Part shown: positions 6,832-64,000 of the stretch, piece by piece
How positions within the stretch are numbered: the stretch's first letter is position 1
Layout: each line of letters begins with the position of its first letter
Origin: Candidatus Thiodiazotropha sp.
Lineage (GTDB): Bacteria > Pseudomonadota > Gammaproteobacteria > Chromatiales > Chromatiaceae
DNA length: 64,000 nt
Direction of reading: 5' to 3'
Assembly (NCBI GenBank): GCA_040506775.1
Contig: JBEVWC010000027.1
Coordinates: 159,801 to 223,800, forward strand
Notes under the pieces: generated by a model
The model's input: the letters and a program-made list of their open reading frames with translations, nothing else
What the model was told of the DNA's origin: nothing
The model's database searches: none
Made by a program: the position numbers and the translations under genes

Positions 6832-7198
6832 CCATAGCGTCAATCGGGGACAGACCACGGTTACTATGTCAGCAATTGACCTAACTGCTGTCTTTTTTGA
6901 AAAACAGCGCTATTGTCTCCTTCGGTCGCGTTTCGGACATACTAGTAGCAACGACGGGTGACGCTTTACGTCTAAAGCACCCATTTTGATGGTACGGCGC
7001 GCGGAATCCGCCGACCTTTTCTCTAACAATGTCATACTCATCCACTGCCGTGACGGACTTCTCTCCGCCGAACGCGTATTTGTGACGGGCTTTACCCACA
7101 CACAACAAGGCAGCATCCAGGCCGAATAACAGATCCGTCGTTCGACCTGGCGCAAAGCAGGCGGTGTCCGATAAACCTCCTGCTGGTTTTTATTCTGT

Positions 7199-49681: not shown

Positions 49682-49687
49682 CGGCCC

Positions 49688-49769
49688 GTAGCCCGGGTGC
49701 AGCGCAGCGGAACCCGGGATGCCCCCACCGCTCGACACCCTGGATTACGCTCCCCGCCATCTAGGCTAC
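49688..49769. repeat. GTAG-family REP doublet, second arm degenerate
   Basis: GTAGCCCGGGTGCAGCGCAGCGGAACCCGGG at 49688-49718; inverted variant CCCTGGATTACGC...CTAGGCTAC at 49738-49769. Confidence 0.8.
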
Positions 49770-49809
49770 CCATGTTCCATGCAACCGACTAAGAAATGTA
49801 GTGTCGCAA

Positions 49810-50040
49810 TTACTTGAATTTATCCAAAAACAACCATTCCCAGGGAAAAAATATTGCGGTCAGTAAAATCCCAGCTACGGGTATATCTCCCGATTCATGA
49901 CGACCGCCGGCAAGACTGTACATAACACCACCGAGCAACAGGATTACGAAAATGAGAATAATCCGGCGGATGACATAATATTTTTTGTCACCTGCTTTTA
50001 CTTTATCCCTGGTGAATTTCATAGACCGATGTATATCCAA
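49810..50040 (-). CDS. Small two-TM hypothetical protein between REP doublets
   Basis: 76-aa AT-rich ORF with basic N-terminus and two hydrophobic segments. Confidence 0.45.
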   Translation of the reverse strand: MDIHRSMKFTRDKVKAGDKKYYVIRRIILIFVILLLGGVMYSLAGGRHESGDIPVAGILLTAIFFPWEWLFLDKFK

Positions 50041-50058
50041 ACATCCCTATAGAGCGTT

Positions 50059-50158
50059 GTAGCCCGGGTGCAGCGCAGCGGAACCCGGGGAGATCGGTGA
50101 GGCGTGTTACGGAGCGCGAGGAGGCATCCCGGGTTCCGCTGCGCTGCACCCGGGCTAC
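50059..50158. repeat. GTAG-family REP doublet (REPIN-like)
   Basis: Two identical 31-bp REPs in inverted orientation at 50059-50089 and 50128-50158. Confidence 0.92.
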
Positions 50159-50201
50159 CTGTGCCCCCACGAGACGCACTCAATGCGCCCATAACCCGTA
50201 T

Positions 50202-51614
50202 TCAAACATCCAGATTGTAACGTTTGATCTTACGCCACAAGGTCGACTTGTCGATGCCAAGAATCTCAGCAGAGAGAGTGCGATCACCATGGGTTTCGCG
50301 CAATGTCTTGCGAATGAAAAAGGCCTCCACATCTTCCAGGCTTTGAGGCGGCAGATGATCGAGAGCCTTGCCCCCCGCCTCACCCAACGGGCTCATCTTG
50401 GCTGGCAGCACATCGGTATCGAGCTTGTCGGATTCCGTCAGAATCATCATGCGTTGAATGACATTTTCCAGCTCCCGCACATTACCGGGCCAATCATGAC
50501 GCATCAATGCACCAAGCGCTGAGGTTGCGATCCCTTTGACCGCCTTGTCGAGCACCTTGGCAAAGCGGTTAATGAAAAAGTAAACCAGTAGCGGGATGTC
50601 ATCACGTCGCTCGCAAAGCGGTGGAATCTCCAGTTCGACCACGGCCAGGCGGTAGTAGAGATCCTCGCGGAATTCACCGTTCTCGATCAACTCTTTCATG
50701 GATCGGTTGCTGGCGGCCAGCAGCCGCACATCGACACTCCTCGCTTCGGTATCACCCATGGGATAGAAAGTACCGTTCTGCACCACCCGTAACAGTTTCG
50801 CCTGCAATGACAGAGAGGCATTGTTGACCTCATCGAGGAACACCGTTCCGCCATCGGCGACCTGAAACAATCCTGGCTTACTGCGTTCGGCCCCGGTGAA
50901 TGCACCTTTCTTGTATCCAAACAACTCACTCTCGATCAAATGCTCAGGTATAGCGGCGCAATTGATAGCGACAAATTCCTTGTCACGGCGCTGACTCTGA
51001 GCATGGATTTGATGTGCCACGACTTCCTTACCCGAACCGCTTGGGCCGGTAATGAGTACCGGACAATCATATCCGGATGTGGCATTGATCATACGCCTAA
51101 CCTGCTGCATGGCCACTGACTGCCCCACCAACCCAGTACCTTCGACGAATAGCTGATTTTCCTTCACCAGTCGCCGGTTCTCCCGACTCAGCTGGTAGTG
51201 TTCCAGGGCACGCTCCACGGTGCAGCGCAATTCAACGTTTTCAAAAGGTTTCCGAATATAGTCGAAGGCACCCGCTTTTAGCGCCTCGATGGCGGATTCC
51301 ACGGTGGCAAATCCCGTTACCAGAATCACCTGGGTCATGGGATCACACTGCTTGGCAAACCTGAGCACATCCATGCCATCGGCTCCCGGCATTTTTAGAT
51401 CGGTGACCACCACGGAGATCTGATGATTCTCCATGTAGTCCATGGCATCGTTAGCCGAGTCCGCGGCGACGATCTCGACCGGAGTTTCGATTGCCGAGAG
51501 CACCTGTACCACCAGGTCGCGCATTCGGGGATCATCCTCGGTAATGAGAATTTTCAAGGTGTTGTCCATCACCGGTTGCTGCTCCTCACATGGTTGCTTT
51601 TCGGCCGCTATCAT
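50202..51614 (-). CDS. NtrC-family sigma54-dependent response regulator
   Basis: Receiver TDLKMPG; Walker A GPSGSGKE; intact ESELFGYKKGAFTGA; WPGNVRELEN; Fis-type HTH. Start may be 51569. Confidence 0.96.
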   Translation of the reverse strand: MIAAEKQPCEEQQPVMDNTLKILITEDDPRMRDLVVQVLSAIETPVEIVAADSANDAMDYMENHQISVVVTDLKMPGADGMDVLRFAKQCDPMTQVILVTGFATVESAIEALKAGAFDYIRKPFENVELRCTVERALEHYQLSRENRRLVKENQLFVEGTGLVGQSVAMQQVRRMINATSGYDCPVLITGPSGSGKEVVAHQIHAQSQRRDKEFVAINCAAIPEHLIESELFGYKKGAFTGAERSKPGLFQVADGGTVFLDEVNNASLSLQAKLLRVVQNGTFYPMGDTEARSVDVRLLAASNRSMKELIENGEFREDLYYRLAVVELEIPPLCERRDDIPLLVYFFINRFAKVLDKAVKGIATSALGALMRHDWPGNVRELENVIQRMMILTESDKLDTDVLPAKMSPLGEAGGKALDHLPPQSLEDVEAFFIRKTLRETHGDRTLSAEILGIDKSTLWRKIKRYNLDV

Positions 51615-52999
51615 GAGCTTTCAATCTCCAGGTATTCCGGCAACTTCACCACGAAGCGGGCCCCCTGTTCATATTCATGGTCAAGCCGAATTTCGGCCCC
51701 TCGTTTCGCCAGCATGGCCTGGCCAATGGACAATCCCAGACCACTGCCTTCTCCAACCTCCTTAGTGGTGAAGAACGGATCGAATATGCGGCTTCTATTT
51801 TCTCTGGACACACCAGGGCCATTGTCTTCGACGCTGACATACACCGAGCCATGGTCGTCGCGCCATGATCGAATGGATATCTTCGCCTGGGTGGTCTGTC
51901 GCAAAGCCTGCATCGCATTCAGCATCAGATTGGTAAGGACGATTTCGAACTCTCCGCAGCCCCCCTGCACTAGCAGAGTGGCAGGATCGAGATCAATCTG
52001 AAGGTCGATCTTCATACGCCGTAAACGGCAACTGATAAAGGTCTCCACCACTTCACCAACAACCTGATTGACATCACAGGAATCGTTGTCACAACGCTCT
52101 CGTCTGGCATAGTTCAGAAGGTCCTGGATGATCCTTGAGCAACGTTTTGCTTCATCGGCAATGATCTCGAGGTACTGAGTCTTCTGTTCGTTATTGTTGC
52201 CCTGAGTATCTCCGAGCAATCGGGTGTAACCGAGAATATTGCCCAATGGAGTATTCAGTTCGTGCGCCACACCAGCGGCAAACTCACCCATTGCCACCAG
52301 CTTCTCACGCATCGCGACGCTCTCTTGGAGTTGACGGTACTCGCTCATGTCCTGCAATGTAATGACCGCACCCATGTCTGCATCCTGCTGGGTCAGAAAC
52401 GAGAGGTTGAGTGAAAAATAGTGCCGCTTGCCATCGATCATCAGGTCGATCTGCTGGTTATACAAAACGCGCTTATAGAGGAAGGTATCGCGAAGGATAT
52501 CCCGGTCACCTTCTTCAAGTTGCAACAGATCGAACAGGTTCTGCCCGACCAGCCCGCCATTTGTAAAATGGAACAACTCCTCAGCCTGACGGTTCACCGA
52601 GTTAATCTTAAGATTGTCGTCGACACTCAAAAGTGCACCAGGAAGACTCTGTAACAAGGCATTGATCTTGTTACGTTCATTCGCCACCCGTCCCTGACAC
52701 TCTTCAACTGTCGAGAACATCGAAGTCAGGATGGCAAGCATGCGATTGTAATCGGTGATGACTCGTCCGACTGCCCCTCCCCGGGAAACATGGGGCGAGA
52801 GGGGTTGCAGCAACCCCTCCTGAGCCTGGAGAATGTTCTCTCGCAAGGCATTGAGTTGCCAGCGTTGATAGAGATAACCAACGATCGCCAGCACGATGCT
52901 CAATACCGCGGCAATACGTAACCAGAGCTGGTCGTCTATGAATGCGACCAGCAACAATACGACAACGACAGCGGCGAAGCCAATCGCCGCTGTCGTCAA
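51611..52999 (-). CDS. PAS sensor histidine kinase cognate to the sigma54 regulator
   Basis: Two adjacent TM helices with no periplasmic domain; PAS; AGVAHELNTP, DNGPG, FDPFFTTK and GSGLGL; ATGA overlap with the regulator. Confidence 0.93.
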   Translation of the reverse strand: MTTAAIGFAAVVVVLLLVAFIDDQLWLRIAAVLSIVLAIVGYLYQRWQLNALRENILQAQEGLLQPLSPHVSRGGAVGRVITDYNRMLAILTSMFSTVEECQGRVANERNKINALLQSLPGALLSVDDNLKINSVNRQAEELFHFTNGGLVGQNLFDLLQLEEGDRDILRDTFLYKRVLYNQQIDLMIDGKRHYFSLNLSFLTQQDADMGAVITLQDMSEYRQLQESVAMREKLVAMGEFAAGVAHELNTPLGNILGYTRLLGDTQGNNNEQKTQYLEIIADEAKRCSRIIQDLLNYARRERCDNDSCDVNQVVGEVVETFISCRLRRMKIDLQIDLDPATLLVQGGCGEFEIVLTNLMLNAMQALRQTTQAKISIRSWRDDHGSVYVSVEDNGPGVSRENRSRIFDPFFTTKEVGEGSGLGLSIGQAMLAKRGAEIRLDHEYEQGARFVVKLPEYLEIESS

Positions 53000-53093
53000 G
53001 CCATGGCCTCCTGGCAGTTCCGGGTGACGCTCCTCCCGAGCGGACCGTGTGGATACTTGTTCGAGAATATGGTTTTCCTCTTTGAATTCTGCC

Positions 53094-54263
53094 TTAAAAG
53101 ATCAGTTGCAGACCCAGAGTCGCCTGATCATAGTCCTGCAGTGAATGGATGCTGGGATGTTCCTCCTCATAGCTAACATTTGCATATTCAAAGGTCACCT
53201 TCAACCTCTGGCCATCGATATAGTAGTTGGCGCCAATACTGTTCCACTGGTTATCGTAGTAGGGACCATCGGTGTCGTAGTCGAGGGCCTCATGGCGATA
53301 GAACAGCTGCAGACGGCCTGGACCCACCGGACTCGGGAACAGGTAACCGAACTTCGCATAATAACCGTCCAACTGGGTGTTGACGGTCAGCTCAGGATCT
53401 GGATTCTGGTTGATAGCATCCCCCACGTCGTAGTCGAAGGCCGCTGCTGAGGCGGTCACCGTTCCAAAATCAAAGGGATATTCGTAAAACACATCCGCCG
53501 TCCAGGCCGTATAGTCCTGAGGATCGGATCGGGCGGGATAATCGGCATAGGCGACGTCTCCCTGGTAATCGTACGCCACACCAAAGGTCAAGACCTTGCG
53601 GGTGCCGAGATAAGTACCCCGGTAACCGTAATCATATTCAGGGTCCAGCATAGTGTAATGGAGGCGGGTGGTGATCCTGGGGGAGTCCTTTACCACTTCG
53701 TCCCCTTCTCGACCGTCGGCGATCATCAGACGATACTGAAGCTTGGCATCTGCCAGATTACCCCAGACTGCCACGCCAGTATCCCGCGTACCACCAAAGG
53801 GTGTATAGGAGAGAACCTCGGACCGATCCAGGGTCAACGGTTCCAGACAGGCCTCAAGATTCTCACGCGAGAAGGTGTTCTTGAAACGACCCACAATGAA
53901 GCGCAGCGGATCCGAGTAGTCCAGGGTAATGTAGGCATCCCGATAATAAACCGAGCGGTCATCGTTCCCGGCACGACTGTCGCTACCCGCTTCCAGTTGA
54001 GCATAGAATCCAATGCTGTCGTTGTATTGACCACTGAGCGTGATCCGATTGCGCCGCAGAAACATATCGGTCTGACTGCCGTCATCCGTGTTTGAAGTGA
54101 AGCTGCGGTACTGGCTCCAGCCCTGAACTGCGTAACTGAGCGTAAGGGAGCCCTGTTCTCCAAACTCTATGGTGGGCCCTGCCTGTGCCGAACCTGCAGC
54201 TGCCAGAGTAACCGCACCGGCTGCCAGCAGGCGCACATATTGCGAATGCTTATTGTTTTTCAC
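53094..54263 (-). CDS. Outer-membrane porin, OprO/P-like (ExtI-like)
   Basis: Signal peptide; FLRRNRITL, YRDAYI, GRFK...SRENL and GRDTG-like motif; terminal LGLQLIF. Confidence 0.82.
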   Translation of the reverse strand: MKNNKHSQYVRLLAAGAVTLAAAGSAQAGPTIEFGEQGSLTLSYAVQGWSQYRSFTSNTDDGSQTDMFLRRNRITLSGQYNDSIGFYAQLEAGSDSRAGNDDRSVYYRDAYITLDYSDPLRFIVGRFKNTFSRENLEACLEPLTLDRSEVLSYTPFGGTRDTGVAVWGNLADAKLQYRLMIADGREGDEVVKDSPRITTRLHYTMLDPEYDYGYRGTYLGTRKVLTFGVAYDYQGDVAYADYPARSDPQDYTAWTADVFYEYPFDFGTVTASAAAFDYDVGDAINQNPDPELTVNTQLDGYYAKFGYLFPSPVGPGRLQLFYRHEALDYDTDGPYYDNQWNSIGANYYIDGQRLKVTFEYANVSYEEEHPSIHSLQDYDQATLGLQLIF

Positions 54264-54771
54264 TGCTTACCCCCTTGCTTGCAACGTACTTGCTCAACAA
54301 TGTGCTGCCCTCATCCCCAGCGTGACACTTGAAACAGAATTTATCGGGTTGAGAGAGCGAGTCGCCCACCATGCCACCATGAGCAATACTCTCCTTCATG
54401 AGACGCGGGTTGCCACCATGACAACCAACGCAGGAGTTGTTGACCCGATCGTGGTCCTGATGCCAGGGCTGACTGGTCGGGGCACCGGCACGTTTGCCGT
54501 TATGGCACTTGAAACAGCTCGAAGCACCAAGACCGCAGGCATTTGCCAGGCGGATGGGTGAAAGTTGAGACAAGCTGTCCTGCAGGGATACGATCGCTGA
54601 ATCGCCCCAACCCTGCGTCGGCTCGGACATCTGCTTGGATAGCGAATCAGGCATTTCTGATGCAGGGGTTAATAACACCGACAGCACCAATCCACTTACC
54701 AAGAGCACCCCGGAAAGCAGTGTGATTCGTCGCAAACCCTGGGTAAATCTGGACAGCAACTTCTTTATCAT
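54250..54771 (-). CDS. Membrane-anchored or exported triheme cytochrome c
   Basis: CFKCH, CVGCH and CFKCH; N-terminal hydrophobic helix; extra Cys in ACGLGASSCFKCH. Confidence 0.88.
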   Translation of the reverse strand: MIKKLLSRFTQGLRRITLLSGVLLVSGLVLSVLLTPASEMPDSLSKQMSEPTQGWGDSAIVSLQDSLSQLSPIRLANACGLGASSCFKCHNGKRAGAPTSQPWHQDHDRVNNSCVGCHGGNPRLMKESIAHGGMVGDSLSQPDKFCFKCHAGDEGSTLLSKYVASKGVSSEKQ

Positions 54772-55010
54772 TGGTTTTCTCCTCCTCGTGATCGATTCTC
54801 TTGTTCTGATTCATTGTCGCCTTTCGAGCCGCCGTTGCGTTCGCGTTCCGCACGACGGATATCCGCCTCGCTGAGTCCGCCGCTGCACATGCACACCGGA
54901 CCACTCTTGAAACGCAGACCAGAGGGACTTGCCGCACCCCCGCTCCGCTCATCCAGCCCGGCACACATGGCGGTATTCCACCCAACCGCCAAACCCCAGA
55001 CAGCCACCAT
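54768..55010 (-). CDS. Small CxC-containing protein (~80 aa)
   Basis: GGGAGG RBS upstream of ATG 55010; PVCMCSGGLSEADI; ATGA overlap with the triheme gene; start uncertain. Confidence 0.55.
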   Translation of the reverse strand: MVAVWGLAVGWNTAMCAGLDERSGGAASPSGLRFKSGPVCMCSGGLSEADIRRAERERNGGSKGDNESEQENRSRGGENQ

Positions 55011-55087
55011 GAGAAAAGTTACCTCCCTGAACTGATGCGGCAATCTTGTGGAGTCAGGTTTCATGGATCTTTTCATAGATCTTCTAG

Positions 55088-55104
55088 AGCATTTCCTATG
55101 CCAA
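55088..55104 (-). promoter_or_regulatory. sigma54 -24/-12 promoter 3
   Basis: TTGG-CATAGGAAAT-GCT; IHF-like TAACAACGAGTTA in an AT-rich tract just upstream. Confidence 0.75.
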
Positions 55105-55190
55105 AGATATATTTCTCTTATTAACAACGAGTTACGATATTCCATCCGAGCACACTGGATTGCACAAGGCCTTCCGGGGCGGATTTGCTC

Positions 55191-56417
55191 TCAATTTGCA
55201 ATCCGCCCGTTAACCGGTAGCGACTTGTCCATGCGAATCAGCTCGTAGCGGGTTGCACGGGCATCCGTATAGGCCGTTTCGAGCAGGCCGAGGGAAGCGG
55301 CCGGTAATCGCTCCGGCCGCTCAAGCATTTGTTTGAACATCCGTTCGTAGTGTTCCCTGGGCACTACCGCAACATCCAGGGTCACCACACCGGAGTTCGC
55401 CTCGGTCCATGCCTGCAAACGATGGCTTTCACCGGGGGCTATACGGGTGTCAGCCAGTTCCCGGTTCAAGTCGACATTCACCTGCCAACCGATGGTCGAC
55501 TGCGCAAGACGCTCCGTCTGACCGTCTGTCCTTAGCAGATTCAGGGTCAATACAACCTTCGGCACCATGTAGGTGGGAAAAAGGTGTCCTACATCCACAT
55601 TGGTCAATGAGGCGGAAATCCGATAACGTCCATCCACAGGTGTCACATGCAACTCGGCGCGCACAGCATTGCGCACCATCTGCGGATCATGGATACCGCG
55701 CCAGAGATGCCGGCGGTCGGGCATATGGCAATCCTGACATTGGCGCTGCTCAGCGGCAGCCGGACTTGCCAGCCACTGAGCATAGGTATCCTCCTGCAGC
55801 TTGCCGTTGACGCGTGGGCCCTCCTCCGGAAACTGATGGCAGGACGCACAGAAGCGACTGTCTGAGAACGCCTCGTGAACCGTGAATCCCGCATGCGGCA
55901 GGCGCCCCGTAGGCAGCTCTGCTCGAGGTTCTGGACCGAAGCGTTGATGTCGACGCACATGACAGGCGGCACAAACCAGCCCCTGTTGGTCAAGATCCCC
56001 GCCGACATAGTCCGGTGGTGCTTGCTTTGGCGCGCCCGGCCAGTCAAAACGCAACGCCATCAACGCCTTCTGCTCCGCCAATGGCGCATGACAGTCAAGA
56101 CATTTGTTGGCCTGGGACTGATTCATGAGATGCAGCTGCCACATCAGGCCTGCAGAGACCGTACGGCTATGCAGACTGGTCTGCCAATCCTCCCACTGTC
56201 GCGGGTGACAACTGCCGCATTCGCCAGGTGCCAGGGAACCCTCACGATCTGTGAATCCCTCAGGCAAAGGACCTTGCGGGGCAATAGGGCGTTGCCAGTG
56301 ACGATCGACAAAGGTGTCTATGGTGATCTCTTCACGCGCAAGAAGATAGAAAGCGAGCAACAAACACAACAGCGCCAGAATCAAACCAGACACAATCAAT
56401 CCCACACGCCCATTCAT
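55191..56417 (-). CDS. Pentaheme cytochrome c (c554-like family) with N-terminal membrane anchor
   Basis: CGSCH, CLDCH, CAACH, CASCH, CQDCH and GHLFPT; start moved to 56417 because the longer ORF begins inside a terminator. Confidence 0.88.
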   Translation of the reverse strand: MNGRVGLIVSGLILALLCLLLAFYLLAREEITIDTFVDRHWQRPIAPQGPLPEGFTDREGSLAPGECGSCHPRQWEDWQTSLHSRTVSAGLMWQLHLMNQSQANKCLDCHAPLAEQKALMALRFDWPGAPKQAPPDYVGGDLDQQGLVCAACHVRRHQRFGPEPRAELPTGRLPHAGFTVHEAFSDSRFCASCHQFPEEGPRVNGKLQEDTYAQWLASPAAAEQRQCQDCHMPDRRHLWRGIHDPQMVRNAVRAELHVTPVDGRYRISASLTNVDVGHLFPTYMVPKVVLTLNLLRTDGQTERLAQSTIGWQVNVDLNRELADTRIAPGESHRLQAWTEANSGVVTLDVAVVPREHYERMFKQMLERPERLPAASLGLLETAYTDARATRYELIRMDKSLPVNGRIAN

Positions 56418-56523
56418 GGGAGATCCATCAGCGAAGCCCTGTAGCACTCGCACAATCGACTCGTTTCCGCCAAGCGCATCCTCCGTCGTACCACCACGGG
56501 TTTCAAAGCATGACCCCAGTGAG

Positions 56524-56551
56524 AAAAAAAGGGCCCGCACATGTGCGGGCC
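56524..56551 (-). terminator. Rho-independent terminator after the rhodanese gene
   Basis: Perfect palindrome GGCCCGCACATGTGCGGGCC followed on the minus strand by a T7 run. Confidence 0.8.
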
Positions 56552-56616
56552 ATAATACACATCGAAATAATCAATCCGATTGAATAACACCCAGCCGGAT
56601 TGATACTACCCGCAGC

Positions 56617-58107
56617 TTAACCGCCACAGGGGTTTGGGGGAAGCACGCCACCTCCGCTGCTGCCGTTGTCCGGGGCTGGAGTGGTGGAAGAGTCAGAACT
56701 ACCCGAATCGATGATCACACCCTTGTATTCCAGATCCGCAACAATGACGGCATCAGTGCTCGGGGCGTAGGCATTCACGATGTTACGCGGGGTAATCGCT
56801 GCTGGGTCGCCCTGCACACGAAACATACTGACCGTACTCTTATCCGTGCGCCAGGGGGAATCCCAAGGCAGTATCGCATTGCCATCACTCGCCACAACAT
56901 TGGCCATCGAATGCCATTCAGTCATTGCGCCGTCATAAAAACGGGTCGGTAATCCCAGGATGACGCCTGAAGCGACACCCGTGATCATGGCACGAAACGT
57001 GGTTTCGCAGTACGTATAAACCGTATCACCTGCCTGGTAGGCGTTGCCAGCACCGACCCCCTGCAGGGTACCATCGACAAAACCGATCCCCGAGCCGTCA
57101 GTATATCCATCAAGATAGGACTGAATTTCAGCCTTGCTCTTGAAGGTATATCCGGCATCGGTATGCAGCAGATTGGTATAGGCCAACATCAGCGCACCAT
57201 TCGGATGGCCTTGAGTCGCACCGCCATTGCGATAATCTGCATCATCATCCGGACTGTACTCGTCACTACCGCTGGTCGGAAGACTGGTTGGCAGATTGTT
57301 GCCGCGGGCATCCCAGATGAATACCCCGTCACCGAGCAGATTGACATCCTGAGTCGGAGCGATGTTGATCATATCCTCCAGCGTGGCCTGCAGAGCCATG
57401 TTGGCCTCCGGCAGATCAATCACACTCGTGGAACCGTTCATCGGCGGGGTACTGCCCGCTGCGGAGAAATCGGCCGCTGTCATGGCCGTATTGGTACCCA
57501 CCCATTGGTTCCCGCCGTTGAGAATTGCCAGATGTTCTTTCGCAGTTCCCCAGTAACGGAACATATACCAGCATCGTCCGGCACGCATCGTCTGTCCGGC
57601 ACCTGCCGTGCCCTGAGCACAAACCACCATGTCCCGGGTGGGATCTATACCGTATTTGGACATAAAGGTGTCCATACCCCGACCGCTCGGTACCATGCTC
57701 ACGGTTTCGGTCACACCGTTGGAACGGGTCTCAACCCACTCACTACCATCCACCGCATAGGTGAAGATATTGGCGCCGTCCGGTGCAACAAAGTCGTACC
57801 CGGCCTCACCCGCCGATGTCTGCAGAATGACCAGTTTGCCGGTGATGCCTGCGGGTTTGTTGGTAGACCAGCTGTCCAGCCAGCGTTTCAGGGTATTACC
57901 CGTGATCAGACCGTTGACGTTGTCGTCATAGTTGTCAGCAGACTGCTGAGCGATATCGGACGGCATCTGCTCCGCGGTCGCCGACGATGCGCTGACCGTG
58001 GCTCCACTGTCATCGGCGGAACCGACACAACCGGCAAGTCCCAGTGACAGCAATCCAGAGGCCACTAGTGGCACCCCCATTCGGACGAATAGTGTACGTC
58101 GCTTCAT
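56617..58107 (-). CDS. Tandem-rhodanese lipoprotein (ExtH-like sulfurtransferase)
   Basis: Lipobox LAGC; WDARG, GHPNGA, active-site-like YCETTFRA and YDGAMTEW; Ser/Gly linker ending PNPCGG. Confidence 0.82.
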   Translation of the reverse strand: MKRRTLFVRMGVPLVASGLLSLGLAGCVGSADDSGATVSASSATAEQMPSDIAQQSADNYDDNVNGLITGNTLKRWLDSWSTNKPAGITGKLVILQTSAGEAGYDFVAPDGANIFTYAVDGSEWVETRSNGVTETVSMVPSGRGMDTFMSKYGIDPTRDMVVCAQGTAGAGQTMRAGRCWYMFRYWGTAKEHLAILNGGNQWVGTNTAMTAADFSAAGSTPPMNGSTSVIDLPEANMALQATLEDMINIAPTQDVNLLGDGVFIWDARGNNLPTSLPTSGSDEYSPDDDADYRNGGATQGHPNGALMLAYTNLLHTDAGYTFKSKAEIQSYLDGYTDGSGIGFVDGTLQGVGAGNAYQAGDTVYTYCETTFRAMITGVASGVILGLPTRFYDGAMTEWHSMANVVASDGNAILPWDSPWRTDKSTVSMFRVQGDPAAITPRNIVNAYAPSTDAVIVADLEYKGVIIDSGSSDSSTTPAPDNGSSGGGVLPPNPCGG

Positions 58108-58213
58108 GATCTTCTTATCCTCCACCTTTGGTTGATAGCTCTCGCAACATGCATTGAGACGCCGGGCCCGGGGGCGATGGTCATCCAAGCTTGCGAACTC
58201 GCTATTGGCTGTT

Positions 58214-58230
58214 TGCAGTTTCTATGCCAC
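58214..58230 (-). promoter_or_regulatory. sigma54 -24/-12 promoter 2
   Basis: GTGG-CATAGAAACT-GCA; AT-rich tract immediately upstream. Confidence 0.75.
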
Positions 58231-58365
58231 TCGTTACGGCAGCCAATTTTTCTTATAAAACAATAAATAAAGCGTAACGCAGCTGTTCTTTCGAATTGCA
58301 GTCCATTGCAGCTTTACCACGCATGACGATCGAGTGCGTATTTTGCAATGTCGCGAATTCTTTCT

Positions 58366-58560
58366 TCACATCGTCTGCCGAATCACCAGCGGCACCGCAC
58401 CGGATGCCAACTGGTCAAGCAATCCCTGATAGTCGTCAGTCAGAGTGACCTCAGCCACCTCCGCGCCACGCTGTTGTAAGCCGTTACGCATACCTTCGAT
58501 CAGGGGGCCGCGTTGCGCATCATTGACATAGATCAGGACAAACGTTTTCTTCTCGCTCAT
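58366..58560 (-). CDS. Small conserved hypothetical protein, last gene of the YeeE-TusA-DsrE block (DsrH/TusB-sized)
   Basis: 64 aa; ATGA overlap with the preceding gene; beta-alpha-beta-alpha-beta pattern. Confidence 0.6.
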   Translation of the reverse strand: MSEKKTFVLIYVNDAQRGPLIEGMRNGLQQRGAEVAEVTLTDDYQGLLDQLASGAVPLVIRQTM

Positions 58561-58802
58561 ATCAGGAACACCACGTTGGAATCCATCAGCCAGTCCGCAA
58601 GCAAGTCGCCACTTTGTGCCGAGACTGTTTCCAGAGGCACTTCAGCGAAATCCAGTGCGTCGAGTTGTTCCTGAGCCGCATCGGACGAATCCAGGTCGCC
58701 ATACACAGCGACACGCACCGCGTCATCCAGCAAGGTCAACCCGGTAGCCATACGCAACGCCTCGATACGATCATGCATGGCCAACATCAGTATGTTTTTC
58801 AC
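58557..58802 (-). CDS. Conserved hypothetical protein, DsrF/TusC-like
   Basis: Probable GTG start 58802 after GAGGA; EALRMATGLTLLDD motif; no Cys. Confidence 0.65.
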   Translation of the reverse strand: MKNILMLAMHDRIEALRMATGLTLLDDAVRVAVYGDLDSSDAAQEQLDALDFAEVPLETVSAQSGDLLADWLMDSNVVFLI

Positions 58803-58833
58803 TTCTGCCAATTCCTCTCTCCTCTCAAACCGC

Positions 58834-59145
58834 TCAGAACACCAGTACCCGATCGCTGTTGTGCACCATCTCCGCGTCCTGATACTGACCACCGATAACG
58901 ACCCGCTGCATCAATTCTTCATCTGTCGTCGTTGGATGGTCATGTCGCTCCATACTCAGTTCACAGACCGCGACATTCAGATCCTGTGTTTTCATCAGAT
59001 CGCAGAAGCCGTCATCCTTCAGCAGCAGTACACCCCGGTCGGTGAGAAAGCAGCGATTGCCCCATCCACGCTCGAAAGATGCCTTGATGACACCAATGGC
59101 GTGTCCGGCCAGCGTCTCGTCGGTAATCACGATACCCAACTGCAT
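58834..59145 (-). CDS. DsrE-like sulfur-relay protein
   Basis: LGIVIT, CFLTDRGV, VCELSM and GGQYQDAEMVHNSDRVLVF; about 100 aa. Confidence 0.75.
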   Translation of the reverse strand: MQLGIVITDETLAGHAIGVIKASFERGWGNRCFLTDRGVLLLKDDGFCDLMKTQDLNVAVCELSMERHDHPTTTDEELMQRVVIGGQYQDAEMVHNSDRVLVF

Positions 59146-59149
59146 GGGA

Positions 59150-59401
59150 TCAGCCCTTTCGGATCTGCCAGGTGAAGGTGCCGCCGCCCTCCTCCCGGTT
59201 CATCAACTCATTACCGGCTGTCTCACACATGGAAATGATGGATTCGCCGGACGAGGGGTTGTCGAAGATCAGGGTCAGCACGTCGCCACTGTCCATCTTC
59301 TGTAGTGCCTTTTTGGTGTACATTTGCGGATGCGGGCAGACGTAACTGGTCACATCCAGCAGATATTGTCCTTCTGCGGTCTGTTCAAATTTCACGGCCA
59401 T
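59150..59401 (-). CDS. TusA/YeeD-family sulfur carrier
   Basis: LDVTSYVCPHP, GDVLTLIFDNPSS; GGAGG RBS before ATG 59401. Confidence 0.92.
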   Translation of the reverse strand: MAVKFEQTAEGQYLLDVTSYVCPHPQMYTKKALQKMDSGDVLTLIFDNPSSGESIISMCETAGNELMNREEGGGTFTWQIRKG

Positions 59402-59469
59402 GGTCGTTGTTCCTCCCAATGATCAATGCTTTCGAAACGATGTCTTGTTCTCTCTGCGTTGCAGCGGCT

Positions 59470-60933
59470 TTAGAAATCGAGTCCGCCTTGACGTGCGGCC
59501 TGCCATTCGACCCACCAGTTGAAGACCTTTACCCCCACGTATCCGCCACCGATCATACCGAGCAAAAAGAGCCAGCCGGTCAGATCGCCGTTGGTAACAG
59601 TGGCGAAAAATGCCCCTACATTGCAGCCCATGCCTACACGGGCACCTATTCCCATCAGCGCACCACCGATAATGGCGAATACCGCAGTTTCAAGATTCGG
59701 TACTTTCCATTTGAACTCCCTACGCAGGTGCGCGATTACAGCAGCACCAAGAATGATGCCGATGGACATAAAACCGGGTGCGTTCAACAGTGGATTCGGT
59801 AGCCCGTAATCGAGGCCGAAGAAGATGGTATCCATGTTCTCCACGCCAAGCTTGTTCAGCAGCCAACCACCCCACTGTGCCTCCTGGGTGGTGATGTACC
59901 AGTAGCCGGGATCGAATACCGTATCCTGAATGGAGAGCCCGCTGCGGTAACCCATGTCCGCCAGCAATTCACCAAAGTTAAAAATACCGTAGTGGTCTCG
60001 CAACGCGCCGATAACCCACATGTGAAGTCCCGCGAAGATGCCCAGTCCAAGACCGGCCCAGGCGGTGTTCTTGGACGAGGTGAACATGGTCCATATCGCC
60101 TTGGAGTGTTGACTAAGGCTCGGTCGATCGATGCCGTTGCGGCGCATATAACCCTTGCGGTAGGTCACGGCATAGAGCGCAAGCAAAATCGCCAGAGCCG
60201 GTAGAATTGCGCCCAACAGAGCATTACCGAAAAACGCCGACCAAACCGGATCCTCAAGTCCCAGACTCTGCGCCACGGTTCCCCCCTTGAGGTCCCACAC
60301 GTAACCCGCCATGAACTGATCGAACCAGCCATCGGTCACGCTCAGTTCTTCCGGCATGCCCTTCTCCATCGCTGAGGCCGTCCAGGAGGCTGGCGCAAGG
60401 GCGTTGCTCCAACTGTCCATGGCGACGAACAGCGCCTGAGAGAAAGAGATCGACACCAGCACCAGCATGGAGCCAATATTGCCTTCACCACTCTTGTACA
60501 AAGAACTGGATGCGCAACCGCCCGTGAAGACGATGCCAAAACCGAAGATCAGACCCCCGATCAGGATATGCCAACCCAGTGGATGAGGGTGAAAGGTATT
60601 GAAGCCACTGACCTGAACGGCTGCAGCGGTTAATGAAAACAGCACCACTGCGATCATCACACCGACCGCCATTCTCGGCACACCCACGGCAAACAGATCG
60701 CGCACAGCGGACGCCATACAGAAACGGCCGTACTGCAACAGCACGCCATAGATCAGACCAAACCAGATATAGACCAACATATAGATAAAACGCTGATCTT
60801 CATTCAGCGCCAGGAGTGAACCCAGCGCGACCAGCCCGAGAATCAATGCGGCATATCGATTGCCTGTTTGACTCAACCAACCACTTTTGGTCCGCGATGC
60901 ATCTAATGTTGTGGTGCTTTCTTGACTGTTCAT
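59470..60933 (-). CDS. YeeE/YedE-family sulfur-compound transporter
   Basis: Three conserved Cys motifs GRFCMASA, GGCASSSLYK and GCNVGAF; multi-TM; AGGAG RBS. Confidence 0.92.
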   Translation of the reverse strand: MNSQESTTTLDASRTKSGWLSQTGNRYAALILGLVALGSLLALNEDQRFIYMLVYIWFGLIYGVLLQYGRFCMASAVRDLFAVGVPRMAVGVMIAVVLFSLTAAAVQVSGFNTFHPHPLGWHILIGGLIFGFGIVFTGGCASSSLYKSGEGNIGSMLVLVSISFSQALFVAMDSWSNALAPASWTASAMEKGMPEELSVTDGWFDQFMAGYVWDLKGGTVAQSLGLEDPVWSAFFGNALLGAILPALAILLALYAVTYRKGYMRRNGIDRPSLSQHSKAIWTMFTSSKNTAWAGLGLGIFAGLHMWVIGALRDHYGIFNFGELLADMGYRSGLSIQDTVFDPGYWYITTQEAQWGGWLLNKLGVENMDTIFFGLDYGLPNPLLNAPGFMSIGIILGAAVIAHLRREFKWKVPNLETAVFAIIGGALMGIGARVGMGCNVGAFFATVTNGDLTGWLFLLGMIGGGYVGVKVFNWWVEWQAARQGGLDF

Positions 60934-60965
60934 ATCTCCTCAACCTTGGCAGAGTGCCTCGTGTT

Positions 60966-61307
60966 TTATTCTTTTCCCGGCAGCATCAATCCCTTGCATA
61001 GGTAGATCCTCCACTGTCGCTGCTCCTTAAGCGTCGCCAGGTGCGTGCTCTCCAGCACCTCCATCAACGACCCCAGCGACTCCACCGAGCTCGGATTGTC
61101 CGAAATCACTTCAATGACTTCACCCTCATGCAGCTGTTCCAGGGCTTTGATCGCCAGCATCTGAGGTCTTGGGCAACTGGCTCCAATGCAATCGATTGTG
61201 ATCGACACCGAAAACTCACCAATACCGGGCAGCGTGACTTGATAATCAACACAGCGACTCATGGCCGATTGGGGTCGACCCGGTCGTCTGAACCATTTCC
61301 AGAACAT
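60966..61307 (-). CDS. Second TusA-family protein with an N-terminal extension
   Basis: IDCIGASCPRP, GEVIEVISDNPSS; GGAGGAG RBS before ATG 61307. Confidence 0.85.
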   Translation of the reverse strand: MFWKWFRRPGRPQSAMSRCVDYQVTLPGIGEFSVSITIDCIGASCPRPQMLAIKALEQLHEGEVIEVISDNPSSVESLGSLMEVLESTHLATLKEQRQWRIYLCKGLMLPGKE

Positions 61308-61449
61308 CTTCTCCTCCACACAGCCGTTATCGCTGCGAGTCGTGTATGTCCCGTTGGCATCCGCTGATCTCATGGTTCTGATTTCGCCTACCCAATCTCT
61401 CCGCGAAACTTTGCAAACGCACGCATACGCATGCAGTCATATGCTAAAT

Positions 61450-61466
61450 AGCAGAGACCATGCCAA
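61450..61466 (-). promoter_or_regulatory. sigma54 -24/-12 promoter 1
   Basis: TTGG-CATGGTCTCT-GCT; AT-rich tract upstream, then several TTGCA motifs. Confidence 0.72.
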
Positions 61467-61783
61467 CTTAATATTTCTTTTAATACAGTTAGTTAGGAAA
61501 CACCCGATCGAAACCTGCATGGGCAAATTGCAATACGGGCCGATTCGGCGGGGGTAGAAAGGTATTTTGCAAACACCTCTGGAAAGCCGAATTCGTTGCA
61601 CAAGAATGAACACCTTTTGCAACCAGGTCCAGAGCAACTGAACAGGGTTCAGACCTTCTCAGATGCCCCGCCCCTGGGTTAAGCGGCATCGACAACGGTA
61701 GAAACAGAGCGGCCAACCGGTGCATCGCCCGGCGTTCAGGAGGTCGATAGTGAATTGTGGTAAATGAAGGGTTACCCGTACCT

Positions 61784-61884
61784 GTAGCCCGGGTGCAGCG
61801 AAGCGGTACCCGGGAAGTCTCCTCACGCTCCGGAACGCGCCCAACCAAATCCACCCGGGTTCCGCTGCGCTGCACCCGGGCTAC
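61784..61884. repeat. GTAG-family REP doublet (REPIN-like)
   Basis: REP variant at 61784-61814 and inverted canonical REP at 61854-61884. Confidence 0.9.
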
Positions 61885-61942
61885 TAGTGCTCTGGTTTAC
61901 TGAGTGATAGACGACTTCACAACTCCGGCGAACGAATCACCC

Positions 61943-64000
61943 TCATCTTCTCAAAAGGAGCTGTTCGTACCGACCAGCGCGTGATCGGTCATGGCGATTC
62001 CGATACAGCACCAACAACGCCAGGAGCAGCAGACTCCAAACCGTGACAGCACCGCCGCCACCGCCACCTGAGGAGGTGCCGGTATCCGCATCCCCATCTT
62101 CGGATGATGCGGCAAGCGTCACGCCGCCGGGATCCGAGATACCACCGTCCGTCTCTCCGTCCGCATCGTTGGGACCACCATCCTGCACGGTTAACTCAAC
62201 ACACCAGTCCCCCGGGTTCAACCCATCCACATAGGCACTGTCCCCCGGGGAGGGGCAATGTCCTTGAGATCCCCGGGCCGACTTGAGCGTATTGGCGCTA
62301 TCGACAATAAACTCCTGCCAAGCTGTGGGCATCTGTTTGCGATAGACCGCGTCAGCGGCAATCGGCTGTAATTGGGGAAGCACCACCTTCACGCTCGCAC
62401 CAACCCCGGCAATCCCTTCGATTCGAAAATCAAACAGCCCCGCTTCGTAGACATAGTCATCTGAATCCAATACGCCACCCTGCCCGCTCGCGATGTAATG
62501 CTCGATGTCGCTCACGCTAATCCCCGCGCCGCTGTGCTGATTGAAAAATGCCACATCGCCCAGACTCAGACTCAAACCCGGTTCCGTTTCGATGAGATAT
62601 TCCGTTGGACTTGCACTGCTCTGAGCCAGGACATTACCCGGCAAGCCATCAGGGTCCAGATAATCCACGATACCGTCTCCATCCTGATCGCCAGCACCTT
62701 CATCGAGATCGGAGATCCCATCGCCATCCTGGTCGCTTCCAGGCTCAAGCGCGGGGGCTTGATCCACAACAAGAAGCGTCAGTTCAGATCTTGCGAGCGC
62801 GGAACCGTCGCTAACCTGCACCCTTACCCGATACAACCCGGAGGCCATCTGCTCAGGATCGAGGGTCAGACTGCTTGGCTCATCGTCGATATCCTCCAAC
62901 AATACGTCAGTGCCGCTCCAGTCATAGGTATGGGTGTCATCCGCATTCAGATCCTCCACAGAGGCGCTGACCGTAACCGGACCGTTGGTCTTGGCCACGA
63001 TGCGGTGTACGGTCCCATTTTGTTCTGCGGCCAAGCTGACATCCGGTGCGAAATTCTCATTGCTTAAGGCAATGCGACAGGTTGGCTTCTCACCCAACAC
63101 CGCATTCGTGGGTTGATCCATGCTCAACAGCAGACTTTGGTACTCCGTTAAACGGGGCAGCATATAATCCGGTATGCGGATTGTGGGGGGCTGCTCTTTG
63201 CCATCGATTATCAGGACGTCATGACGTAGCGTGTGCTGAGTCTGGTCAGCGGCCAATACCGCACTCAGCGTATAGGGCACGCTAACAGGATATCGGGCCG
63301 GTGCGCCATTCATCAGCAGGGAACACTCGAACGGACCCGCCGGAGACGCGGCGCGGTCCCGGTCGAACTGAATGAGCGGATCGACTCGTACGATCTGGAT
63401 CGCCTCTCCCGAGCGAACCTCCCCATCATTGACCGACCAGGTGAGCAGATGCGTCCCGGGGACCAAATAGAGCCGGGTCGGATCAGAGGGCAGCGCCTGT
63501 TCGACGCCGTTGCTGACCAGACGCTTCAAATAGGTCTCCAACTCATCGCCCTGATCATCCTGGGCGGTCGCCCTACCCGCATCGACCTCGGTCAGCGTTC
63601 CGCTTGCGGGGCGGGTAAAGTCGTCCGGCGCGACCACCACCGGTTGTCCCGCGGACACAACCGGTCCCGTGTTGATCGCTTGCGGGACAAAATCACACCT
63701 CCCCGTGCCTCCCGAGCGATATTGGACAGTCGCCGAAATCAGGTGATTCACATCATCTACGGTCGGCACATAGGTGGTGCTGTTCGCGGCAACTAAAAAT
63801 CTGTTGTATGAGTATATAGGGGAAGCCCGTTCCCACAGAAAAGCCACCAAACAATCGTCCGCGAGATATAAACTGCTGGTATCGATGCTTAACACGGCAT
63901 CTTCGGCGACCGAACCTCGAAGGTAGATTGCGCCAACCGGCGTATCGTCGACGTTCACGACGGGATCCATCGTACGCAGCGAACTCAGCTGTTCCCGATT
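61943..64000 (-). CDS. Large cell-surface protein (5' end outside the window) with Ig-like repeats, TSP3-like Ca-binding repeats, a choice-of-anchor-U-like domain and GlyGly-CTERM
   Basis: Frame open to the window edge; DQDGDGISD/DQDGDGIVDYLD; CVELTVQDGGPNDADG; GGGGGAVTVWSLLLLALLVLYRNR tail. Confidence 0.85.
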   Translation of the reverse strand, partial: NREQLSSLRTMDPVVNVDDTPVGAIYLRGSVAEDAVLSIDTSSLYLADDCLVAFLWERASPIYSYNRFLVAANSTTYVPTVDDVNHLISATVQYRSGGTGRCDFVPQAINTGPVVSAGQPVVVAPDDFTRPASGTLTEVDAGRATAQDDQGDELETYLKRLVSNGVEQALPSDPTRLYLVPGTHLLTWSVNDGEVRSGEAIQIVRVDPLIQFDRDRAASPAGPFECSLLMNGAPARYPVSVPYTLSAVLAADQTQHTLRHDVLIIDGKEQPPTIRIPDYMLPRLTEYQSLLLSMDQPTNAVLGEKPTCRIALSNENFAPDVSLAAEQNGTVHRIVAKTNGPVTVSASVEDLNADDTHTYDWSGTDVLLEDIDDEPSSLTLDPEQMASGLYRVRVQVSDGSALARSELTLLVVDQAPALEPGSDQDGDGISDLDEGAGDQDGDGIVDYLDPDGLPGNVLAQSSASPTEYLIETEPGLSLSLGDVAFFNQHSGAGISVSDIEHYIASGQGGVLDSDDYVYEAGLFDFRIEGIAGVGASVKVVLPQLQPIAADAVYRKQMPTAWQEFIVDSANTLKSARGSQGHCPSPGDSAYVDGLNPGDWCVELTVQDGGPNDADGETDGGISDPGGVTLAASSEDGDADTGTSSGGGGGGAVTVWSLLLLALLVLYRNRHDRSRAGRYEQLLLRR

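Follow-up and report, generated by a model that had tools for sequence, protein, structure and literature searches.

Probable sigma-54 promoters with paired TTGCAA sites in a sulfur gene cluster of Candidatus Thiodiazotropha sp.

The gene cluster and its sigma-54 promoter motifs

The window (the whole stretch of 64,000 nucleotides analysed) contains a sulfur-handling island of a clam-symbiont genome. According to ORF translations and profile searches the island consists of 13 genes, all on the minus strand, and the cluster is syntenic in 41 loci of Gamma- and Betaproteobacteria. Its genes are listed by unit in Table 1; unit 1 is described after published accounts of the YTD block (PMC12998232, PMC13047784). 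The PAS histidine kinase (HK) spans the membrane with two helices whose connecting loop is ~6 residues long, and therefore lacks a periplasmic sensor domain. The NtrC-type response regulator (RR) contains Response_reg (87.5 bits), Sigma54_activat (228.7 bits) and HTH_8 (39.6 bits) domains. Its GAFTGA motif is intact, as a preliminary description of this DNA had stated, and reads KKGAFTGAERS in the translation.

Three minus-strand sigma-54 motifs named in the same description (P1, P2 and P3) were found where it had placed them. All have the GG-N10-GC spacing and a TGGCAT start, and all match TGGCAT-N6-TGC(A/T). Tested against the consensus TGGCAC-N5-TTGCW, with GG and GC exactly 10 nt apart, each scores at least 18.5 of 20 in our own weighting, a value which also served as the threshold for orthologue matches. 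The motifs are far above chance expectation: the window contains TGGCATN6TGCW 5 times versus 0.48 expected (5 were reached in 0 of 100 shuffles) and TGGCAYN6TGCW also 5 times, versus 0.94 expected. The remaining two window matches (24811, 37472) are deep within genes, while P1, P2 and P3 are all located in intergenic gaps or at their 5' edge, in the same orientation as the genes, which agrees with the earlier claim. Across the genome 29 of 64 TGGCAYN6TGCW matches fall outside crude gene calls, where intergenic DNA amounts to only ~10%, and further matches lie at most 100 nt from the 5' end of an ORF. The genome possesses rpoN, on contig C37, in an open frame of 510 aa with a Sigma54_DBD match of 235.9 bits. 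It is quite likely that P1, P2 and P3 are genuine sigma-54 (RpoN) promoters and make up the whole local regulon of the cluster's NtrC-type pair. The transcription start sites in Table 1 are predicted (~11-13 nt downstream of the GC dinucleotide), as is RpoN dependence.

No known RNA element was detected in the leaders by an Rfam scan of 49500-62100, which returned, besides a single weak sRNA match, only sub-threshold miRNA-like matches on REP palindromes. The P2 leader is highly conserved and its predicted fold is no stabler than shuffles (z 0.49).

Table 1. Genes, predicted promoters and candidate regulatory sites of the cluster (window coordinates; distances of enhancer sites are from the T of TGGCA)
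Feature	Position	Strand	Remarks
Unit 1 genes	58366..61373	-	six genes, downstream of P1; YTD-like block
tusA1	60966-61373	-	unit 1; likely start 61307
yeeE/yedE-family permease	59470-60933	-	unit 1
tusA2	59150-59419	-	unit 1
DsrE-like	58834-59145	-	unit 1
Two small DsrF/H-like proteins	~58557-58805 and 58366-58560	-	unit 1
Unit 2 genes	55191..58110	-	ExtH-like gene and multihaem cytochrome
ExtH-like rhodanese lipoprotein	56617-58107	-	unit 2; ExtH model 116.6 bits, under the cut-off of 200
Intrinsic terminator GGCCCGCACATGTGCGGGCC, then T-run	56532..56551	-	directly past ExtH-like gene
Multihaem cytochrome	55191 to ~56420	-	unit 2
Unit 3 genes	50202..55064	-	small CxC peptide and the four genes listed below
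Trihaem cytochrome	54250-54771	-	unit 3
ExtI-family porin	53094-54263	-	unit 3; 352.8 bits versus ExtI cut-off of 150
PAS histidine kinase (HK)	51611-52999	-	unit 3
NtrC-type response regulator (RR)	50202-51614	-	unit 3; 3' end of cluster
P1, probable sigma-54 promoter TTGGCATGGTCTCTGCT	61450..61466	-	GG 61464-61463, GC 61452-61451; predicted start near 61439
P1 distal candidate enhancer site TTGCAAAATACCT	61560..61572	-	-107; PWM 11.4, 7th in window
P1 proximal candidate enhancer site TTGCAATTTGCCC	61521..61533	-	-68; PWM 13.5, 5th in window
P2, probable sigma-54 promoter GTGGCATAGAAACTGCA	58214..58230	-	predicted start near 58203
P2 distal candidate enhancer site TTGCAAAATACGC	58336..58348	-	-119; PWM 13.7, 4th in window
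P2 proximal candidate enhancer site	58306..58318	-	conserved half CTGCAAT, TGCAA 58310..58306
P3, probable sigma-54 promoter TTGGCATAGGAAATGCT	55088..55104	-	predicted start near 55077
P3 distal candidate enhancer site TTGCAAATTGAGA	55189..55201	-	-98; PWM 19.5, window's best
P3 proximal candidate enhancer site	55160..55172	-	conserved half GTGCAATC, TGCAA 55164..55160
IHF-like site TAACAACGAGTTA	55124-55136	+	between P3 enhancer and promoter; one mismatch to WATCAANNNNTTR

Conservation of the promoter motifs and paired TTGCAA sites

The promoter motifs recur at orthologous places in the 41 syntenic loci, where motifs scoring at least 18.5 have a background rate of 0.023 per kb per strand. P1 was found in 27 loci and P3 in 26, and the two recur in most evaluable loci; P2 was found in 18 and is missing from about half. 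In addition to the 27, three loci (L010, L014 and L025) have a P1 in which TTGT replaces TTGC at -12, and L023 has a P1 with a weak -24 element. The number of sigma-54 promoters in an orthologous cluster varies from one to three, with some loci having P1 only. In L032, L033 and L037 the first operon is inverted and has its own sigma-54 motif on the opposite strand; in the two that were inspected (L032 and L037) it also has its own enhancer-like sites at ~-108 and -69.

TTGCA or TGCAA motifs are present upstream of all three promoters, as previously noted. Their interpretation as enhancer half-sites is retained, but they are not loose repeats: each promoter has exactly two sites. In the conserved arrangement a distal cATTGCAAA(A/T)T is followed by a proximal TGCAAT, with cores 36-40 bp apart. 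TGCA-core pairs 36-41 bp apart occur in 73 of 74 promoter regions (0.36 expected), and TTGCAA in 69 of the 74 upstream regions (3.2 expected). The distal cores cluster at -84/-85, -94 to -96, -105 to -109 and -116 to -118 from TGGCA, in steps of ~10-11 bp, or roughly one helical turn. The full form is TTGCA-N3-TGCAA, of which each site is a degenerate version. L012, L018, L020 and L034 have this dyad in perfect or near-perfect form; each site in the window combines a strong TTGCA or TGCAA half with a half that matches at only 2-3 of 5 bases. A position weight matrix (PWM) prepared from orthologues only ranked window sites 1st, 4th, 5th and 7th of the ~128,000 window positions scored. Its best window hit, the P3 distal site, is the second best TTGCA-core site genome-wide and is located inside a local hairpin just past the multihaem gene stop. 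In comparison with L008, which is 87% identical, the enhancer, IHF-like and promoter blocks form conserved islands amid diverged spacers. Extra TTGCA copies at 61622, 61600, 61416 and 58300 were rejected as conserved sites because they are absent even from L008. The pairs are probably enhancer sites for the activator, with the binding protein assigned from the conservation patterns described below.

Upstream of the motifs the previously claimed AT-rich tracts were confirmed: between enhancer and promoter A+T is 63-65%, versus 41-46% farther upstream. The IHF-like tract proposed earlier likewise holds (Table 1), and L008 and L040 have a site with 0-1 mismatch at the corresponding offset. Sites with at most one mismatch to WATCAANNNNTTR are found in 34 of 74 promoter regions versus ~6 expected, and perfect ones in 12 versus 0.2 expected. 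There are four HU/IHF-family genes in the genome. By its sequence P3 has the features of an IHF-assisted promoter.

The preliminary description would have been abandoned if the motifs were not kept in homologous loci. Its core reading stands, since homologous loci keep the promoter motifs as well as the TTGCA sites at fixed positions.

The regulator, overlapping units and rival explanations

The helix-turn-helix of RR (ILGIDKSTLWRKxKRY) is nearly invariant in orthologues which are only 55-66% identical overall. Within the genus, RR (95% identity) and the cluster were found together in 2 of 41 genomes; the remaining 39 contain neither, their best regulator match being at most 45% identical. In the rearranged loci L036 and L039 there is no HK or RR in the 21 kb covered, no sigma-54 motif and no TTGCAA. 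RR and HK are the only regulator genes in the conserved gene set of the cluster. TTGCAA-N29-35-TGCAA occurs 15 times in the genome. None of the ten other best genomic PWM sites is followed by a sigma-54 motif, and no further RR targets were found in these searches. The cluster's own NtrC-type regulator is most likely the driver of P1-P3, as the earlier description had proposed; co-inheritance and the near-invariant HTH point to binding by RR. Elsewhere in the genome, a PAS-bEBP paralogue on contig C19 adjoins a c554-like cytochrome.

The proposed division into three units stands in that three promoters are present here, but the count is lineage-specific and the units are not discrete. A terminator is located past the ExtH-like gene and none was found after unit 1 in the window, so the three units overlap. 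The multihaem gene, following that terminator, therefore appears to have no start point of its own and to be reached only by read-through. A terminator-like hairpin follows the ExtH-like gene in 20 of 37 loci, mostly those bearing P2. Positive autoregulation, also proposed earlier, is plausible in this genome, where the porin gene and HK are only 94 nt apart with no intervening terminator (likewise in L008), but it is probably not conserved across loci, as a terminator-like hairpin is present in this gap in 14 of 33 orthologous loci. A sigma-70 scan yielded 7 sites versus 8.9 expected, none positioned for HK-RR or the multihaem gene, and no basal promoter was recognised for HK-RR. A supply of activator from sigma-54 transcription only would require some basal promoter.

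The promoters could be real but activated by another enhancer-binding protein (bEBP), with the cluster's regulator acting elsewhere or partially. The genome encodes 15 bona fide bEBPs, and the recognition helix of the contig C19 paralogue (AAQILGVDRSTLWRRMQRL, STLWRR) resembles that of RR. The paralogue's sigma-54 motif is preceded by TGCAAC motifs at distances of 58 and 76 nt, so cross-talk is possible. However, the cluster RR and its HTH accompany the promoters and enhancers through at least 30 loci of two classes, in the genus the regulator was found only in genomes that have the cluster, and the loci without visible HK/RR also lack the promoters. This explanation is considered improbable. 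Somewhat less probable still is that a repressor or nucleoid protein binds the TTGCAA pair and the activator works from other DNA or from solution. The strictly conserved core is indeed short, TTGCAA being a 6-bp palindrome, and the window's sites have a weak second half. Against this, two helically phased sites ~60-120 bp upstream of -24 are traits of bEBP enhancers, the dyad form appears in several orthologues and matches the LuxO site, and the syntenic loci conserve no other regulator gene in the cluster.

The least credible explanation, to which hardly any weight is given, is that P1-P3 match the consensus by chance or bind sigma-54 unproductively, with no promoter function. The two further window matches within genes look like chance, and E. 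coli reportedly shows widespread, conserved sigma-54 binding inside genes. The positional conservation of P1-P3 over 41 loci, set against the low background rate, and the coupling of the motifs to a conserved enhancer and AT-rich spacer both argue otherwise. Productive promoters under the cluster's own regulator are preferred.

Proposed mechanism and comparison with known systems

In the proposed mechanism the PAS kinase would respond to a putative inducing signal by phosphorylating RR, which would assemble on the distal and proximal sites of each promoter. The distal core would lie on one helical face, ~85, 96, 106 or 117 bp upstream of -24. The AT-rich, IHF-like spacer would bend the DNA, and the AAA+ ring would open the closed sigma-54 complex via its GAFTGA loops. 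Transcription from P1 would cover the TusA/YeeE/DsrEFH-like block and, with no terminator after unit 1, probably continue beyond it. P2 would boost the ExtH-like lipoprotein gene, which ends at the strong terminator. P3 would start the CxC peptide, trihaem cytochrome and ExtI porin genes and probably continue into HK-RR, creating a putative positive feedback.

A more speculative extension, doubtful when its two parts are taken jointly, concerns the signal and the wider family. In its first part the system would be an import-coupled feed-forward switch, in which the PAS domain senses sulfane sulfur (or selenium) imported by the cluster. Sensing would be cytoplasmic, since HK lacks a periplasmic domain, and the compound would enter the cytoplasm only through YeeE/TusA under P1 and the outer-membrane ExtH/ExtI proteins under P2 and P3. 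If true, uptake and sensing reinforce one another. In its second part, bEBPs with an STLWRK helix, including the contig C19 paralogue, would form an undescribed LuxO-like specificity class recognising TTGCA-N3-TGCAA.

YTD-like and ExtHI-like blocks are widespread in sulfur bacteria and their substrate and role are debated (PMC12998232, PMC13047784, PMC6148476). A literature search found nothing specific on sigma-54 control of YTD or Ext clusters. The putative regulon described here is compact, with a single kinase and a single activator, a 13-bp site and at most three promoters, and is conserved from Thiodiazotropha to Thiobacillus and Rubrivivax. Its conserved promoters offer a direct handle on the inducer of an uncharacterised cluster, which is the shortest route to its function. 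They also illustrate regulatory evolution: a single cluster has one to three sigma-54 starts, and the enhancer geometry survives operon inversion.

The architecture is standard for sigma-54 systems and therefore unsurprising to a specialist. NtrC-activated glnAp2 and IHF-assisted promoters have GG and GC spaced by 10 nt, two activator sites ~100 bp upstream and a bent AT-rich or IHF region. The promoters of the window share the spacing, the two sites and the AT-rich, IHF-like region, and in both cases the regulator genes are found downstream and are transcribed in the same direction, so feedback is possible; the site sequence differs, however, and no accompanying sigma-70 promoter was recognised here.

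LuxO of Vibrionaceae is likewise an NtrC-type receiver-AAA+-HTH regulator, with two sites of the TTGCA-N3-TGCAA form ~60-175 bp upstream of a sigma-54 promoter; its enhancer TTGCAWWWTGCAA occurs twice upstream of that of qrr1 (PMC10162802). The LuxO 13-mer is matched at 13/13 positions by TTGCAAATTGCAA of L018 and at 12/13 by TTGCAACATGCAA of L012, but the window's own sites match at only 10-11/13. LuxO targets are small RNAs and its partner is the LuxU phosphorelay, whereas RR would control protein-coding sulfur genes with a PAS histidine kinase as its partner. RR was rejected as a LuxO orthologue: NF041946 scores 357.1 bits versus a cut-off of 800, and the alignment ends before the DNA-binding domain.

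TspS/TspR of Acidithiobacillus caldus is also a sigma-54-dependent two-component system beside a sulfur-compound oxidation cluster, and it activates sox-II via an upstream activator sequence (PMC6335251). Its enhancer TGTCCCAAATGGGACA differs from the TTGCAA sites and its targets are Sox rather than YTD-like and ExtHI-like blocks; unlike there, the regulator here lies 3' of the genes that it would control, which have up to three promoters. The extHIJKL cluster of Geobacter sulfurreducens shares an ExtI-family porin, a rhodanese-like lipoprotein and multihaem cytochromes with the island (PMC6148476, PMC5877670). In Desulfuromonadales the ext cluster is flanked by a divergent gene for a LysR-family (or TetR-family) regulator, whereas here the ExtHI-like genes are joined to a YTD-like block and are probably controlled by a sigma-54 two-component system.

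Sigma-54 motifs in the window and across orthologous loci

The three matching sigma-54 motifs proposed in the preliminary description (P1, P2 and P3) were all found at the places it gave. Within the 64-kb window TGGCATN6TGCW has 5 matches (0.48 expected), and the looser TGGCAYN6TGCW also has 5 (0.94 expected), a number reached by no shuffle. The remaining two window matches, at 24811 and 37472, lie deep within genes. The source genome (4.47 Mb) contains rpoN and only 64 matches to TGGCAYN6TGCW. By a crude longest-ORF caller, 29 of the 64 fall outside gene calls and others no more than 100 nt from an ORF 5' end, although the same calls leave only about 10% of the DNA as intergenic. A match to the motif is thus a good guide to where sigma-54 promoters lie in this organism. 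Transcripts beginning 11-13 nt past each GC would have their predicted starts near 61439 (P1), 58203 (P2) and 55077 (P3).

Features of the sulfur cluster and its edges (window coordinates)
Feature	Sequence	Position	Strand	Remark
P1 sigma-54 motif	TTGGCATGGTCTCTGCT	61466..61450	minus	pattern match
P2 sigma-54 motif	GTGGCATAGAAACTGCA	58230..58214	minus	pattern match
P3 sigma-54 motif	TTGGCATAGGAAATGCT	55104..55088	minus	pattern match
YTD-like block		58366-61373	minus	complete; YeeE, TusA, DsrE-like and two small proteins
Leader of ExtH-like gene		58107-58181		
Strong intrinsic terminator	GGCCCGCACATGTGCGGGCC + T-run	56551..56532	minus	after ExtH-like gene
Imperfect hairpin	GGGCGGATTGCAAATTGAGAGCAAATCCGCCCC	55175-55210		directly 3' of multihaem gene stop
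Hairpin, 15-bp stem		52963-52998	minus	opening of histidine-kinase ORF
REP-like palindromes	GTAGCCCGGGTGCAGCGCAGCGGAACCCGGG (arms)	50059-50158, 61784-61884 and 49688-49726		about 100 bp, 31-nt arms

A search with the ExtH-like gene retrieved 41 orthologous loci from Gamma- and Betaproteobacteria, nearly all of which have the same 13 genes in the same order; carriers with cultivable isolates include Thiohalomonas, Thiogranum and Thiobacillus. With a weighted sigma-54 score of at least 18.5 (genome background 0.023 hits per kb per strand), a motif stands at the orthologous position of P1 in 27 loci, of P2 in 18 and of P3 in 26; many loci without a scored motif end at a contig edge. This recurrence supports the three proposed promoters. 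The proposed division into three units fits the window's own group of loci, which has P1, P2 and P3, and does not extend to the others: promoter number differs between loci, the Burkholderiales-type loci having P1 and P3, and L012, L018, L020 and L034 having P1 only and no gap ahead of the small-peptide gene. In L032, L033 and L037 the first operon is inverted, with a sigma-54 motif of its own on the opposite strand.

Some P1 copies are altered. The -24 element is weakened in L023. In L010 (~6768-6783), L014 (~2790-2805) and L025 (~6955-6970) P1 reads TGGC(A/G)T-N5-TTGTA, so that the near-invariant GC at -12 is GT (TTGT for TTGC), with the enhancer pair and IHF-like box intact upstream.

Enhancer sites and the protein that may bind them

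Of the 74 promoter-upstream regions pooled over the loci, 69 contain TTGCAA (3.2 expected). The position of TTGCAA, counted from the T of TGGCA, is fixed: about -107 to -111 at P1, -118 to -120 or -98 at P2, and -96 to -98 at P3. In anchored alignments each promoter has a conserved distal site, cATTGCAAA(A/T)T, and a conserved proximal one, (A/C)TGCAAT; 73 of the 74 regions contain two TGCA cores at a spacing of 36-41 bp (0.36 expected). The distal cores cluster at -84/-85, -94 to -96, -105 to -109 and -116 to -118, in steps of roughly one helical turn. At P1 of the one-promoter loci, the distal site forms a clean dyad (ATTGCAACATGCAAT, ATTGCAAATTGCAAT, ATTGCAAGATGCAAT); the window's sites each have one strong and one weak half. 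When about 128,000 positions are scored with a matrix built from the orthologues alone, leaving out the window and its 87%-identical relative L008, the window's own sites come 1st, 4th, 5th and 7th. The earlier reading of the TTGCA repeats as candidate enhancer half-sites is supported for the two conserved sites of each promoter, but not for the extra copies at 61622, 61600, 61416 and 58300, which are not conserved in L008. The distal P3 site lies inside an imperfect hairpin common to the window and L008 and absent from more distant loci.

Enhancer sites, IHF-like box and promoter form conserved blocks between the window and L008. In the window, A+T content is 63-65% over the 62 bp that separate proximal site and promoter, compared with 41-46% farther upstream, in agreement with the AT-rich tract described before. 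The tract singled out as IHF-like, TAACAACGAGTTA, has indeed only one mismatch to the consensus and the same offset in L008 and L040. Over all regions, 12 contain an IHF-consensus match with no mismatch (0.2 expected) and 34 one with at most one (about 6 expected); the high-GC Burkholderiales loci are without such sites. The source genome has four HU/IHF-family genes.

The source genome encodes 15 bona fide enhancer-binding proteins, and among these the cluster's own response regulator is favoured as the binder on several lines of sequence evidence. Its helix-turn-helix, ILGIDKSTLWRKxKRY, matches the invariant TTGCAA in being almost unchanged among orthologues whose overall identity is only 55-66%. 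Among 41 genomes of the genus, the cluster co-occurs with a 95%-identical regulator in two; the other 39 have neither, and their best regulator match is at most 45% identical. The rearranged loci L036 and L039 lack the kinase and regulator genes in the 21 kb fetched, and also the sigma-54 motif and TTGCAA. None of the ten best-scoring enhancer-like sites elsewhere in the source genome has a sigma-54 motif after it, and the regulon therefore seems limited to the cluster. An enhancer-binding paralogue on another contig (C19:22534-25886; 466 aa as scanned, with an N-terminus that looks PAS-like by eye only) resembles the regulator in its recognition helix (...STLWRRMQRL) and may share its DNA-specificity class, as a second member. 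Its gene diverges from that for a 527-aa c554-like cytochrome, which has a sigma-54 motif (C19:24302-24317, minus) with TGCAAC motifs 58 and 76 nt upstream. Given the helix and these motifs, cross-talk with the cluster's sites is conceivable.

REP-like palindromes flank the whole cluster, close behind the stop codon of the regulator gene at one end and close ahead of the P1 enhancer at the other; Rfam returned only spurious miRNA-like matches for them. Since the cluster is present in only two of the 41 genus genomes, they may delimit an acquired island.

Predicted transcription units and possible feedback

By its predicted genes, unit 1 has the composition of the 'YTD' block (PMC12998232, PMC13047784). 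P2 is followed by a 497-aa lipoprotein with distant similarity to ExtH, the rhodanese lipoprotein of Geobacter (116.6 bits, short of the ExtH cut-off of 200), and then a multihaem cytochrome. Over the leader of this ExtH-like gene, window and L008 are about 97% identical, far more than over the adjoining spacer; the leader has no Rfam match, and its predicted fold does not stand out from shuffled sequences (z 0.49).

Under a simple stem-plus-T-run rule, a terminator-like hairpin follows unit 1 in only 2 of 37 loci, so P1 transcripts probably run on into the ExtH-like gene, with P2 as a booster. The terminator after the ExtH-like gene is kept in 20 of 37 loci, mostly P2-bearing ones (both present in 13, neither in 13, mixed in 9). 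It would leave the multihaem gene without its own start point and reliant on read-through.

Downstream of P3 lie, in order, a small CxC peptide, a trihaem cytochrome, a porin scoring well above the ExtI model cut-off (352.8 bits against 150), a PAS histidine kinase and the NtrC-type response regulator. The last has receiver, AAA+ and Fis-type HTH domains, and the expected intact GAFTGA is present. In its 470-aa frame the receiver aspartate is Asp72 (VVVTDLKMP), and the C-terminal domain takes up about residues 405-470. Transcription from P3 is predicted to start near 55077, which would leave almost no leader ahead of the ATGs that open the small-peptide ORF (55076, 55064); translation more likely begins inside the ORF, at the ATG at 55010, which follows GGGAGG. 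The translated kinase begins with two hydrophobic helices about six residues apart, and therefore has no periplasmic sensor domain. A hairpin spans its TTG start and first codons, and might limit translation or work as an attenuator.

The porin-kinase gap is only 94 nt long, without a terminator, in the window and L008. P3 transcription probably reaches the kinase and regulator genes, which would give the positive autoregulation suggested earlier. However, a terminator-like hairpin stands in this gap in 14 of 33 orthologues, and a search for a basal promoter found none; autoregulation is accordingly plausible here but not general.

Comparison with known systems

A literature search found no paper on YTD-like or ExtHI-like clusters under sigma-54 control. 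In a 2026 survey, only Desulfobacterota and Nitrospirota were reported to have the complete YTD cluster, and only these two phyla and Acidobacteriota the YTD DsrE and CHP proteins (PMC12998232). A block that is YTD-like by gene composition is also found in many Gamma- and Betaproteobacteria (loci L008-L048). The cluster yields a portable set of promoter, enhancer and regulator, and a route to the inducer of a widespread uncharacterised sulfur cluster.

In architecture the cluster resembles no other so closely as the classical NtrC-type sigma-54 systems, to which it conforms. The closest solved relatives of the regulator are Aquifex NtrC4 and NtrC1, followed by LuxO, of which it is not an orthologue (357 bits, cut-off 800). 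The full site, TTGCA-N3-TGCAA, has the form of the described LuxO enhancer, TTGCAWWWTGCAA, two copies of which lie upstream of the qrr1 sigma-54 promoter (PMC10162802). TspS/TspR of Acidithiobacillus caldus is a sulfur-related precedent with a different enhancer (PMC6335251), whereas the Geobacter ext cluster has a LysR-type regulator alongside, unlike the sigma-54 system here (PMC6148476).
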